Below, piece after piece: positions 24,001-30,000 of a DNA stretch of 64,000 nucleotides. The DNA comes from a bacterium. Lineage in GTDB: Bacteria; Myxococcota; UBA727; JAUIJE01. The stretch covers positions 1,294 to 65,293 of the forward strand of contig JAUIJE010000002.1 in assembly GCA_030431455.1 (NCBI GenBank). The letters run 5' to 3'. Positions within the stretch are counted from its first letter, which is position 1. Each line of letters starts with the position of its first letter. A program made the position numbers.

Positions 24001-27000
24001 CTTTGACTTTGTAGTTGCCGGGGGTTTGGTTCTTCATGTCCATCCTGTTCTCCGTTTGTGGATGTGGGTGAGGTTGTTGCTGAATCAGGCGGCCTTTTCC
24101 GCGATGAGCACCTGCCAGGTGAGGTGGGCATCGTAGGCGGGGCCGATGAAGGGGCGGGGCACCAGGTTGGCGCCGGGGGTGGACAGCCCGGCGGCGGCGA
24201 GCATCGCCGCGAGCTGGTCGGCGTCAAACCCAAGCCACACGTCGCCTTGTTCGCGCATGGCTTCGTCGGTGTGGGGCAGGTAGTCGACGAGGATGAGGGC
24301 CCCCCCGGGACGCAGCAGCCGCGCGGCTTGGGCCAGGGTCTCCTGGGGGCGCGAGCTGTGGTGCAGGGTGCGCGCCAATGTCAGCGCATCGGCGCCGCCG
24401 GTGGCGTCCACTTCCTGCAGGAGGTTGACGTCGTCCAGGCTGGCCTCGACCAAGCGCACGTTGTGAAGCCCTTGGTTGCTCACCCGGGCCGCGGCCTGGG
24501 CGAGCCGTGACTTGCTCCGGTCGACGGCGATGACGCGATCGTAAGCGGGGGCGAGCACCTCGAGAAAAGCCCCGTCACCGGTCCCCGCGTCGATGGCCAG
24601 ACGGTTGGCGGGAAGCAAGCGGGACAATGCGTATACATAGGCTTTGTCCACGGTGGACGCGGCGGGGGGCGGCACCGCGTCGGCCTGCTCGAAGAACGCG
24701 CGGCCGGCCTCTTCCCGCGCGGCCACCACCTCGGGCACGCGCTGCAGGGCGCCGGCTTGCAGCGACAGGCGCGAGCCCTCGGCCACGGCGTCCAGGATCA
24801 CCGGGTCATCGCTGCGGGCCGCGCGCAGGTAGGTGCGGGTGCCGTCCTTGCGCGCTTCGATCAGCGACATTTTGCGGAGGGCCGCCACCTTTTTGCTCAC
24901 CTGGGGTTGGCTCTCGGCGAGGAGTTCGGCCAGCTCGCCCACCGCGAGCTCCTCTTCGGTGAGCAGGGCCAACACCTTGAGCCGCACCGGGTCCGCGAGG
25001 GTGCGGTAGAGATCGGTCCGGGCGGGGGCAGGCGCGCTCACCCGATCTTTTGTATGCCGATATGCGAATGTTGGCAACCTTGAGTTCGGGATTGGGACAG
25101 GATCTGTGTAGCGGCTTGATTTTATGTGGTTTTTCGTCCTCGTCGGCGACGGGGGCGCACATGCCGTCCGGCACACCCGGATGTCATGAAGAGGGTCTGC
25201 TCCCGCGCGCGCCGGACGTGAGGAGGCAGGTTGCCATGTCGCGGTGGGCCACTTGCTTCAGGCGAGGGGCGGGACGGGTCTGCCGGTTCGGGGGGCCGCG
25301 GCGGTGGTGGGGGTGGGCCCTCGGGATCGATCCTCCTAAACTCATGTTTTTATTGCGTTTTTCACGTCAACGATGTGGCGCTTTTGGGCAAGCAGCGCAC
25401 GGCCCCCTTGCCAGGATGGGGCGGCAAGGAGGTGGGTATGCGCCGGGTGTGGATCGGGCTGTGGTTGGTGTTCGCGGGCTGTGACCCGAGCCTGCCGGGG
25501 GATGAAACGCCCGATGCGGGCGACGGGGACGGCGATGGCGACGGCGATGGAGACGGCGACGGCGATGGAGACGGCGACGACGATGGAGACGGAAATGGAG
25601 ATGGAGATGGAGATGGGGATGGGGATGGGGACAGCGTGGAACAACCGGCGGACGGCGGACCCGTCGATGCTGCTTCGTCAGGAGATGGGGATGAAGAGCA
25701 GCCACTCCCCGCCCTGGTCGATGACCACTTGGTGGGCGACTTCGTTCTGGCTGCCGGCGAGGAGGCTCTCGTGCGGTATGCCGACTTCGTGGCCCCCGAC
25801 TACCCGATCGTGGTGCAGGGCAATGTCACTGTGGAAGGTGGGGCAACGCTCCGCACCCAGGCGTATCTGTATGTGCAGGGCACGCTGACCTTCGCCGCAG
25901 GGTCCGTGCTCGAAGGCCATGACGAACCTGAACTCATCGGCGGCGATCATGGCGAAATCTGGGCCGACCACCTGGTGATGGCCGGCACCGTCAACCAACC
26001 GGTCGTCGTCGACGGGCAGACCTCATGGGACTTCCATGTGAACACCCCCCACCCCGAGGTCGCCTATGCCCAGTTTTCCGAGGCCGGACTGATTGTGGGC
26101 GCCTGGCCGTCTATCCCCTCCGGGACCTACCTTCCCAGCCTGGGAGGATTCGTGCGGGACTCCGTTTTTGTCCACGACGTGGCCAACTACGGTGCCGGGA
26201 CCCGCTCGCAGTTCTACGGGCCGGGCGACGCTCTCGTCATCGAGCACAACCTGTTTGACAAGGTACAGGTCAACCTGCGGGGAGCCCGCTTCGTGCACAA
26301 CGAGATGCAGTACCATGACCAGAACGGCTCGTTCTACGGCCACATCCAGGTGTCGTCCATGATGGGAATCAATCCCGCCTGCACCGGTGAACGCACCGAG
26401 AACGCCGCCGTGACCATCGAAGACAACCTCTTCCACGTGCCCCCTGACCTATACAGTCCTCAGAACTGGATCGGCATCGGCCGCATGTTCGGCCCTTGGC
26501 ACATTGAGCCCAATGCATTTGCACCCAAGTTGCCCTACGACCTGTTGCTCGACCGGATCGATGGGTGGGACGGCACCAGCACCGGGTGTTCGGACGGTCT
26601 CGGGGCCCACGGGGGACCGGTCACCCTCGCGACGCCGCTCGAGGCCACCCCCGCGGTGGGACCGCGCCCTTAGCCGCGCCGTCGCCGAAGGACGAGCCAC
26701 AGCGCGAACAATGGGGCGTAGCCAACCGGCGCCACCCCGGCACAGCCCCCGCCGTCCGGGGGCGGTGCCGTCTCCCGGTCGTGTCCGATGCCGTAGATCT
26801 CCTGCCAGAGGGCGAAGTCGTCGGCGCAGACCGCGGCTTGGCTGTCCGCGGGGCAGTCCCGCGACACAATGTCTTTGTAGGCCACCGGGGCCCGGATGTT
26901 TCCGCCCTCGAGGAGCAGGAAGTCTTCGTCGCGCAGGCTCGCGCACCCCACCACCACGTCGCCTCGTCGATGCAGGCAGTGCTCGAAGACGTCATCACCG

Positions 27001-30000
27001 ATCCGCTCGCCACTTTTGCGAAACCGGGCCGAGGTCTCATCGGCGAACAACACCACGATCTCGTCGCCGGCCCCCACCAACGCCTCGGGCCGTACATCGA
27101 ACACAAACCACGGCGCCTCGCCGAGGGGCCCCACCGCGTGGCCGGTCCCGGCCGGCGCGCTCACCACCAACGTTCCGTCGACGGTGGCCAGGGCCCAGGC
27201 CGGCCCGGGGTGGGCCGGGGCCACCTCGCCCCCGGGCGATATCGTGTAGAGCTGCGGGATCGCGGCGGGGGGCGCGGTGGCCGTGACCACAAACCCGTTC
27301 GGACCGGCGTCGGTGAGGGAGATCGGCAACAGACCGGTCAGGTCTGCGAACACCTCGAACGACCCCGCACCATCGGTGCTCACGAACAGGGCGTTGTCCC
27401 GGTCGGGGCTGCCGGTGAGCGCGTAGAGCGCGCCCTCGTGGGCGCGGCCGTCGACTACAAAATGTTCCTGCAGGTCATTGTTGCGCCGCTGCACCGTGCA
27501 GCCCAGGTCCGTGGTCTCGGACAGGCCCCGACCCCCGTCGCTCCACACGATCCGGGACAGGTCCGGCGCCGCCCAGGAGAAACGAACCGTGTCGGGGGCG
27601 GTGCACGTCCAGGCCCAGCGGTCCTCGTCGCGGGTGAGCAGGCCGTAGGTGGTGATGCCCCCGATGAGGTCGCCGCTCTCGTCGAGCCAGGGGGCGAGGC
27701 CCGCGGGGGCGTCGGCGTGGGCGTGGGCGGGGGCGTGAAGGCACATGGCGATCAGCACCCCCGCCCCAAGGTTCGGCCACATGTTACTTGGTCGCGGCCA
27801 CAAACCCGACACACATCTCTCCGTCTTCCGCCCAGTTCAGATCGCGGGGGGCTTCCTTTTCCCCGAACACGACGCGTTGGTTGTCTTCGCTGTTGTCGAA
27901 GTGGCACTCCAGATAGAGGCGGTCGTCGGGTTCCAGGACCTTGGGTTCTTTGAAGATGTAGTCGCCCTGCCACTCGTGTTCGTAGCGGTCGATCTGCAGC
28001 AGGCACTCTTCGGTGCCGTCTTTGCGCAGGATGCCGATCATCCCGGACTTGCCCCGCTCGTGCATGTGCAGGTTGACCGACAACAATGTCAATGGTTGGC
28101 CATACCCGACCACGTCGGTGGGGTCGTACATCACGTTGTATTTCACGTCTTTTTCGCCGGCGGGGATCGGCATGCCCCCCCACGGCCACAGCGCGTTGAA
28201 CACCGAGATGGCCTGGATCTCATGGTCCACCTCGTCGACGGTGACCAGCTCGATGCGGGACCGGTCGGGCAGGTCTTGCTCGGCCCGGGCCGGCGCGGAG
28301 TAGTGGATCGAAACCACCACCTTCGAGCCCGGGTCCACCCGGTGACCGTGGCCGTCGGGGGTCTTTTGCCCTTCCCAGCCCGGGGACCAGCCCCCGAGGT
28401 AGCCATACCCGCTGACCAGACCGCCAGGACAGGACCACCCGTAGGCCTCATCTTGCTGTGCATAGTATTCGTAAGTGGGCACGAGGTCGGGACCGGCCAC
28501 CAACACCACCGCGTGGTGCACCACCGCCGCGTTGCCGGGAACAAATCGGAATCCAGTCACATACTTGGTCTCGTCTTCCGGCCAGTCCAGCATGAAACAG
28601 CGGGTGTCGTCGTTGGTGCCCGGCGGGGGATTGCGTTCGTACTCTTCGGCCATGTCGAGGGTCAGGGTCACCGGGCCCAGGCCAAACCCGGGCTCCTCGG
28701 CGGGGCTGATGCCGGGTTCGCCCCGGGGAGTGCCCCCGTCGACCCACGACGCGATGAGGTCAATCTGTTCTTGGGTGAGCGAGAAGTCCTGTTCGTAATC
28801 CGTGCAGCACTTGGCCGGCATCCACGGGGGCATGGTGCGCTCGACGACCGCGCGGCGAATCGCGTCTTTGTGCGCCACCGCGTCGTCGTAGCTCTCGATC
28901 GCGAACGTGCCGATGCCGCCCTCCCGGTGACAGCGCGTACAACGGGATTGGAGCAACGGCCCCACGGTCTCGGCGTAGGTGGGCACCTCGGGAAGCTTGT
29001 CGACGGAAAGCTCGTCTTCGCACCAGGCGAGGTCGGGGGGGTAGACCTCCTCGATGCATCCGGGGGCGAACAGACAAAGGACGAAAATCGCGCGTCGCAT
29101 GAGGCCTCGGGGCTGGGGGACATGGGTCCTTCCCGGCCGGTCCGCGGGCCTTCATCTTTTCTCCTCGGATCTGTGCGCGCGGGTGAACGCGGCCTCGTAG
29201 CCCGGGAGCTCGGTGTTGCCCAATCGGTCCCAAACCCTCGTAAACAGACCGTAATTTCCATGTGAACGGGCGTGGTGCAGGCCGTGGAACGTGGTGGTGT
29301 TGGCCCACCTGAGCCCGGGCACGCGGAGAAGCCAGGCGGGGAAAAACTCGTAGCCCAGGTGGGAGCCGAGATTGTTGAGCAGCCCGATCACCGCGGTGAC
29401 GCCAAGGACCGCGGCGGGAAGAGGCACCCACACGCACAAAGGGATGAGCCAGATGCCAAGCACGAGGGCTTCGATGGCGTGAAAGGAATAGGCGGTGAAG
29501 GGGTTGGTGTCGATGCTTCGGTGATGAACCGCGTGCACATGCTTGAACAGCCAACGTGTATGCAGGGCGCGGTGGCACGCGTAGAACCACATGTCATTGA
29601 ACACGAGGAGAAGCACCACCGCCCCGGCCATCTCCCACCATCGCCAGTGGGGTGCGTGGAGAAGAATGGTGGGGTGCCCCGAGGCCTGCAGCATCACCAA
29701 CGCCAGGGGGGTCAGGCCGCCCACCAGCATGGTGACCACGGTGTGCTTGACCTCAAACCAGATCTGCGCGCGGTCCACCCGCCGATGTGACTGCACCCGG
29801 CGGGCGGCCCACCGCGCGGCCCCCCACCGCCACACCACCAGGTACAGCCCCCCGGCCAACGCGAAGTAGGCCACGATTTGCACCAGCGACTGCCCGATCA
29901 TGGCGGTCGCAAACGCGGCGGGGGCATCCGGCAACTCGGTCATGGTTCCCTCCGGTGGCAGGGTATGGACCCCGTTCACATTTTGCAACTTTGTGTTGCA

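Follow-up and report, generated by a model that had tools for sequence, protein, structure and literature searches.

Peptidylglycine alpha-hydroxylating monooxygenase (PHM) and dopamine beta-hydroxylase (DBH) produce amidated peptide hormones and noradrenaline, and in both the reduction of the CuH copper site and the passage of electrons over ~11 Å to the CuM site are debated. The reductant of PHM is ascorbate, which bacteria generally lack, as they do cytochrome b561, and the animal enzymes are awkward to produce. In animals PHM works together with a beta-propeller lyase in peptidylglycine alpha-amidating monooxygenase (PAM). In fungi, the cytochrome domain of cellobiose dehydrogenase gives single electrons to the copper site of lytic polysaccharide monooxygenase (LPMO). 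In methanotrophs, the surface copper proteins MopE and CorA are co-transcribed with MauG-like di-heme c-type enzymes, for which a role in the post-translational modification of these surface proteins has been proposed (PMC3912023). Here we analyse a stretch of 64,000 nucleotides (nt; the window) from contig JAUIJE010000002.1 of a member of the Myxococcota (assembly GCA_030431455.1), in which a single gene encodes a lipoprotein joining a c-type cytochrome domain to a copper core of the PHM/DBH type, and the next gene encodes a secreted protein, hereafter the partner.

We hypothesise, with a probability of roughly 65%, that the fusion protein, anchored by lipid and facing the periplasm, is a non-coupled binuclear copper monooxygenase in which the fused heme c would feed CuH, replacing ascorbate or cytochrome b561. 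The domain architecture, ligand conservation and fold behind this proposal are observed, as are the family distribution and the gene neighbourhoods described below.

Results

The fusion protein, 438 amino acids (aa) long, belongs to the PHM/DBH superfamily and is an orthologue of neither PHM nor DBH. When a profile of its family was compared with the PDB, human DBH (4zel) was matched at E 5.3e-11 and rat PHM at ~9e-10, and the putative copper ligands aligned residue for residue: the CuH residues H195/H196/H266 onto PHM H107/H108/H172, the CuM residues H345/H347 onto PHM H242/H244, and the EMC motif (E428/M429/C430) onto EEMC(V) of DBH, with the CuM-Met motif of PHM confirmed in the PHM sequence itself (SSDEMCNLY). 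PHM residues are numbered as chain index plus 44, anchored on the ligand numbers H107/H108, H172 and H242/H244. The first-pass annotation had read HH, H, HMH and EMC in this protein as the two copper sites and had staked that reading on their superimposing on the ligands of PHM; the ligand-on-ligand profile alignment leaves the finding standing, and in a 29-sequence alignment, in which identity to the query is 37-52%, all of these residues are invariant (H195, H196, H266, H345, H347 and M429, together with E428 and C430). Six Cys in addition to C54 and C57 are invariant as well. The PHM disulfides C81-C126 and C293-C315 match C168/C224 and C399/C430, and C99 and C366, which are found only in the heme-fused family, may form an inter-domain disulfide. 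From the ligand set, copper is predicted to occupy both CuH and CuM.

In PHM, R240, N316 and Y318 bind the peptidylglycine carboxylate and backbone. Their equivalents here are N343, V431 and F433, and the initial description of the enzyme as of a peptide or amine alpha-hydroxylating type is, with these replacements, not supported. The query matches Cu2_monoox_C (PF03712) with 30.4 bits (cut-off 23), and this model is above threshold in all 29 members; no NCBIfam model matches the protein. The AlphaFold model of the monooxygenase (mean predicted local distance difference test score, pLDDT, 86.1; predicted template modelling score, pTM, 0.83) has a predicted two-domain beta-sandwich catalytic core, and a Foldseek search with it ranks DBH and PHM at the top. 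Pfam scans of the query and the 29 members gave no match to DOMON, and no PAL (peptidyl-alpha-hydroxyglycine alpha-amidating lyase) domain was found in the protein.

Ahead of the copper core, the CTRCH and TMPPW motifs noted earlier as heme-binding proved to be equally constant, with C54, C57, H58, M90, P91 and P92 invariant in 29/29 sequences, and this N-terminal domain is predicted to carry a covalent heme c with His/Met ligation. A weak relative of the domain is the X183 c-type cytochrome domain of Teredinibacter (8Q1W), a class that has been studied as possible electron donors to LPMO (PMC10916295). The first-pass call of a lipoprotein also holds: the lipobox of the query, L-F-A-P-G-C15, is imperfect against the consensus, its Cys is at least 90% conserved in the alignment, and the relatives have standard lipoboxes of the form L-[AV]-[AG]-C. 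In the AlphaFold model the signal and lipobox region has a pLDDT below 50. The open reading frame (ORF) itself was called correctly at the outset, since its G+C content at third codon positions is 0.83, typical for coding sequence in the window (G+C content ~64-74%, roughly 68%), and an identical 438-aa protein (P0001) is called on independent assemblies.

The same architecture recurs widely. A homologue search returned more than 215 proteins, nearly all of 420-460 aa and matched over their full length, and when one genome of each species was scanned, relatives turned up in 435 species genomes, of which the 80 best, whose loci we examined, are almost all Myxococcota. The hosts include Sorangium (So ce56 too), Polyangium, Nannocystaceae, Enhygromyxa, Hyalangium, Archangium and many metagenome-assembled genomes, and a homologue (A0A097DC80) is present in Stigmatella aurantiaca Sg a15. 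Since the full-length fusion is kept across the family, the heme domain appears to be needed for function. Members are named 'monooxygenase', 'cytochrome c' or 'hypothetical' in databases, and full-text literature searches for heme-fused enzymes of the PHM/DBH type, or for bacterial ones, found no paper on the fusion. The redox architecture, at first described as unusual, is the standard form across these genomes; the heme c-copper fusion is unstudied rather than unusual, being what a large family normally looks like and no one-off. Databases already show this combination of domains, and it is the function that we infer.

The partner gene follows the monooxygenase gene at the closest spacing. 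On the minus strand the junction reads AAG TAA c ATG, with the stop at 27784-27786 and the downstream ATG at 27782, and the partner gene therefore begins 1 nt past the monooxygenase stop, exactly as first proposed. Two gene callers chose this ATG, giving a 370-aa partner. An alternative in-frame start, GTG 27812, follows a Shine-Dalgarno-like GGAGAG that ends 4 nt upstream, and no such sequence was seen before ATG 27782; the GTG start would add an Arg to the n-region of the signal peptide and create a 29-nt overlap with the monooxygenase gene. With either start the two genes are tightly packed. Between 26300 and 30300 no promoter-like site was found, and terminator-like matches occur there at the frequency expected by chance. 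On the other side, the stop of a fatty-acid-hydroxylase-family gene (FA_hydroxylase) lies 51 nt before the monooxygenase start on the same strand; this gene is probably co-transcribed with the monooxygenase here, and a TetR gene runs divergently from it. We rejected the hydroxylase gene as a conserved member of the operon, since a tblastn search of the 80 genome loci gave no homologue and the closest relative, L083 (loci other than the window are given as L numbers), lacks it at this position. On the opposite strand, a convergent gene at 25231..26673 (+) overlaps the partner stop codon by 4 nt; its product is secreted and carries a long (DG)n tract, and the one Pfam match, to TrAA12, was disregarded because it sits on this low-complexity stretch. 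The coordinates of the features are given in Table 1.

Table 1. Features of the locus and of related loci, with the basis of each assignment.
Feature	Position	Strand	Basis or remark
Cytochrome c / PHM-DBH-type copper monooxygenase lipoprotein gene	27784..29100	(-)	438 aa
Signal peptide and lipobox, aa 1-15, predicted lipidated Cys15	29056..29100	(-)	Cys conservation
Monoheme c-type cytochrome domain, ~aa 40-125	28726..28983	(-)	CxxCH + Met
C54xxC57H58 heme attachment motif	28927..28941	(-)	CTRCH
Met90, proposed axial ligand (TMPPW)	28831..28833	(-)	conserved Met
Copper domain 1, ~aa 145-300, CuH site H195/H196/H266, C168-C224 pair	28201..28668	(-)	profile alignment
Copper domain 2, ~aa 305-438, CuM site H345/H347/M429, C399-C430 pair	27787..28188	(-)	PF03712 aa 312-434
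Gene junction TAA-c-ATG (monooxygenase stop, 1 nt, partner start)	27780..27786	(-)	read from sequence
Partner gene, 370-aa secreted beta-rich protein	26670..27782	(-)	homologues adjoin monooxygenase in six lineages
Partner signal peptide aa 1-21; His22	27717..27719 (His22)	(-)	predicted first mature residue
Partner MYXO-CTERM tail	~26673..26750	(-)	TIGR03382
Fatty-acid-hydroxylase-family gene, context only	29152..29988	(-)	PF04116, 96.5 bits
HxHNHG lipoprotein beside monooxygenase	L038 7243-7842, L043 4864-5493, L057 7243-7836, L070 6827-7762, L015 3131-3790, L029 1768-2340		
HxHNHG lipoprotein beside partner-like genes	L096 3457-4017, L097 340-921		

The partner belongs to a divergent family. 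A word-indexed search with it returned itself and one fragment only, and an exhaustive HMMER search returned 33 cluster representatives (P0121-P0153), mostly of ~380-470 aa, 27 of which were used for conservation counts. Its MYXO-CTERM tail, already recognised in the first-pass annotation, is borne out by TIGR03382 on the excised last 40 residues (17.0 bits, cut-off 15.85; the full-length scan reports nothing), and most of the 27 representatives end in a Cys, a hydrophobic stretch and RRR. This signal directs myxosortase cleavage and cell-surface anchoring, and its architecture has been described (PMC11980579). At the other end, a small-x-small signal peptide followed by His is found in 25/27 representatives, and this His is 93% conserved. 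We considered reading 'AH[GA]' as a signal-peptidase A-x-A site and rejected it: the residue after the His varies (G, S, D, Q, I, L, V) and is therefore incompatible with position -1, and cleavage before the His fits 25/27 representatives. The mature protein is thus predicted to begin with His22, in the manner of histidine-brace copper proteins. Of the other hallmarks of these proteins, neither a second His ligand nor an immunoglobulin- or cupredoxin-like fold was seen, and no second His reaches 70% conservation in the 27-member family. The partner is predicted to be all-beta. Its profile weakly matches BNR/GH74 Asp-box propellers (GH74 xyloglucanases; E 7.6e-4), the Pfam models BNR and Sortilin-Vps10 reach no better than E 0.05-0.09, and its AlphaFold model, made from a two-sequence input, has a pLDDT of 31.5 and no usable fold.

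To place the pair in a wider context we examined ~86 monooxygenase lineages, made up of the 80 genome loci together with those of the closest relatives from metagenomes. In six of them the partner adjoins the monooxygenase: directly downstream in the window and L083, directly upstream with a 27-nt gap in L084/L085, downstream with one lipoprotein gene between in L064, and convergent with overlapping 3' ends in L089/L090 and in L091. The adjacent partners are mutually 25-32% identical, and iterated hidden Markov model searches found no partner in the remaining monooxygenase loci. The largest cluster of neighbours across the family is formed by Ser/Thr kinases, which are abundant in myxobacteria, and there is a Sorangium-specific antiporter/TrkA synteny. 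In several lineages small genes for putative outer-membrane proteins or lipoproteins also lie beside the monooxygenase; they fall into an unassigned ~235-aa family (L064 ~2530-3234, L009, L011, L023) and DUF2490 (L089 8625-9350, L091 171-914).

From the partner side we surveyed 22 more distant partner-like loci, and a full monooxygenase was found near none of them (0/22). A stand-alone lipoprotein with the same type of heme domain (L101 1967-2659; E 4.5e-11, profile positions 30-93) precedes a partner-like gene, an arrangement that we count in favour of the proposed enzyme, and before another lies a gene in which a beta-propeller is followed by a CCP/MauG-like di-heme protein (L093 3699-4973). 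In two loci an LPMO_10/BIM1-like protein lies directly downstream of the partner-like gene (L099 6409-7101, L106 1807-2487); it scores 24 bits (cut-offs 23 and 27) and has an AAA/His N-terminus and a MYXO-CTERM tail of its own. Moreover, a family of ~190-aa lipoproteins, which share conserved EPAxGH and HxHNHG motifs and match nothing in Pfam, occurs beside the monooxygenase in six loci and beside partner-like genes in two (Table 1), and so links the two families indirectly; the window holds no copy.

Other genes in the window

At 30668..33205 (+) lies an 845-aa ORF (gene call of 802 aa) with matches to the major vault protein domains MVP_shoulder (60.5 bits, cut-off 25) and Vault_3 (33.5 bits, cut-off 28.8), which makes it a bacterial homologue of the shell protein of eukaryotic vaults. 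It is adjoined by a calpain-family Peptidase_C2 gene at 33215..34642 (-; 95.6 bits) and a 779-aa gene at ~34740..37223 (-) with a weak DUF2157 match. A fusion of an ArsR-type helix-turn-helix domain with an S-adenosylmethionine-dependent methyltransferase (24085..25176, -) lies directly upstream of an S-adenosylhomocysteine hydrolase gene (22598..24043, -; the hydrolase was judged by eye). With its CMGCH motif, the 797-aa ORF at 56169..58559 (+) is a candidate for a further c-type heme protein, and single CxxCH motifs occur in smaller ORFs at 17189..17761 and 55014..55544.

Discussion

The steps that we propose for the heme-fused monooxygenase can be set out as follows. After Sec export the protein would be lipidated at Cys15, the cytochrome c maturation system would attach heme to C54/C57 with H58 and M90 as axial ligands, and copper would load at CuH (H195, H196, H266) and CuM (H345, H347, M429). 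Periplasmic carriers of the respiratory chain would reduce the heme, from which single electrons would pass to CuH and on to CuM, the heme standing in for the ascorbate or cytochrome b561 of animals, and CuM could then activate O2 for the C-H hydroxylation of a non-peptidylglycine substrate. In this lineage the MYXO-CTERM neighbour may act with the enzyme, either as a protein substrate before its surface export or as a copper-handling or redox partner.

Several results weigh against this proposal. It is by inference that we assign heme and copper to their sites, a direction to the electrons, a chemistry to the enzyme and a role to the partner. Of the profile matches to which the first-pass annotation had looked for confirmation, that to PF03712 was obtained and two others were not: Cu2_monooxygen (PF01082) matches 12/29 relatives and does not find the query at E<=0.1, and against Cytochrome_CBB3 the query reaches 18.8 bits, below the cut-off of 27. 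This last model matches 22/29 members, again below threshold, and PccH matches 3/29. In the gene neighbourhoods, ~80/86 monooxygenase lineages have no partner nearby and the distant partner-like genes mostly lack a heme or copper enzyme as neighbour, from which it follows that the pairing is not a family-wide rule; nor did the 80 genome loci hold any family-wide conserved neighbour, or one that would point to a substrate. The early suggestion that the neighbour is a substrate or partner has support in a sub-clade and not beyond it, the adjacency recurring in six lineages and four arrangements. Within that sub-clade the link is real, and the partner could be a substrate, a copper-handling factor or a redox partner.

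The same rarity of the pairing feeds the explanation that survives best beside ours, in which the enzyme is as described and the neighbour is functionally unrelated, adjacent through sub-clade synteny, the substrate being a small molecule or envelope lipid, perhaps tied to the FA_hydroxylase gene. We regard this as possible and still rather unlikely. The neighbourhoods are indeed highly variable across the family, and the FA_hydroxylase gene stands close upstream on the same strand in the window; yet the adjacency persists through the four gene arrangements, including upstream and convergent ones, the divergence of the adjacent partners argues against recent shared synteny, and FA_hydroxylase is neither conserved in L083 nor present in the 80 genome loci. 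A more specific form of our own proposal, a two-component system in which the enzyme hydroxylates or matures the partner in the periplasm before surface export, and the N-terminal His of the partner is part of a copper site, seems doubtful to us. If true, it would amount to a previously unknown myxobacterial surface module for copper handling or cofactor maturation, parallel to MopE/CorA and the MauG-like enzymes, and to the first case of a PHM-type enzyme whose bacterial protein substrate is defined.

We find it improbable that the protein hydroxylates no substrate and instead reduces O2 or H2O2, or oxidizes or handles periplasmic copper, as an electron sink or copper-homeostasis protein. Such a role would be compatible with the absence of identified substrate-binding residues (PHM R240, N316 and Y318 are not conserved), with the copper-related proteins that recur near partner-like genes, such as the LPMO_10/BIM1-like ones of L099 and L106, and with the His-rich lipoprotein that adjoins both gene families. 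Against it, the CuM site is complete and does not vary, down to the Met that is typical of members which hydroxylate a substrate, and the two-domain cleft is invariant too; we also know of no plain-oxidase member of the PHM/DBH fold. A true bacterial peptidylglycine alpha-amidating pair, with the copper enzyme as the PHM half and the neighbour as a PAL-like lyase half, would echo animal PAM and suit the predicted all-beta partner with its weak propeller-type matches, and is nevertheless highly improbable, and a PAL-like role of the partner is rejected, because the carboxylate-binding residues of PHM are replaced in the copper enzyme, the partner profile finds no PAL/NHL structure and only BNR/GH74, the partner family has no conserved His beyond the N-terminal one and so no Zn-binding triad, and the MYXO-CTERM tail sorts the partner to the cell surface.

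A heme-driven copper monooxygenase of this kind would matter in several ways. A natural single-chain heme c-copper version would offer an internal electron donor that can be followed spectroscopically, would provide a bacterial model of the PHM/DBH fold and would show how bacteria run this chemistry in the periplasm. Given the size of the family and the lack of a paper on it in our searches, a defined substrate would annotate hundreds of genes, and might reveal a new modification of the envelope or of surface proteins in myxobacteria.

Compared with PHM, the core of PAM (PDB 1PHM/1OPM/1SDW), the identity is ~18-20%, and the myxobacterial protein differs in that it is a lipoprotein of bacteria, carries a heme c domain added at its N-terminus and lacks a PAL domain. 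DBH / MOXD1 (PDB 4ZEL) is the best profile match, with all six ligands aligned, and likewise has an extra N-terminal domain before the copper core. In DBH it is a DOMON domain, of a fold known from other proteins to bind heme b. Here a CxxCH c-type cytochrome takes its place, the C-terminal dimerisation domain is absent, and the protein is prokaryotic and lipid-anchored. The heme domain finds its monoheme c-type relatives in PccH of Geobacter sulfurreducens (PDB 4RLR) and TtX183 of Teredinibacter (PDB 8Q1W), which are free-standing or parts of multi-heme proteins, whereas here the domain is in a single chain with the copper enzyme that it presumably feeds; TtX183 domains did not activate LPMO (PMC10916295). 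To MopE/CorA the likeness is one of analogy only, a surface copper protein beside a c-heme oxidative enzyme, the proposed enzyme at our locus being a copper monooxygenase with one heme. Cellobiose dehydrogenase and LPMO differ in their heme b, in the donor being a separate protein, in the mononuclear histidine-brace copper and in an unrelated fold, and share with the proposed enzyme the principle of a heme domain that feeds a copper monooxygenase site.

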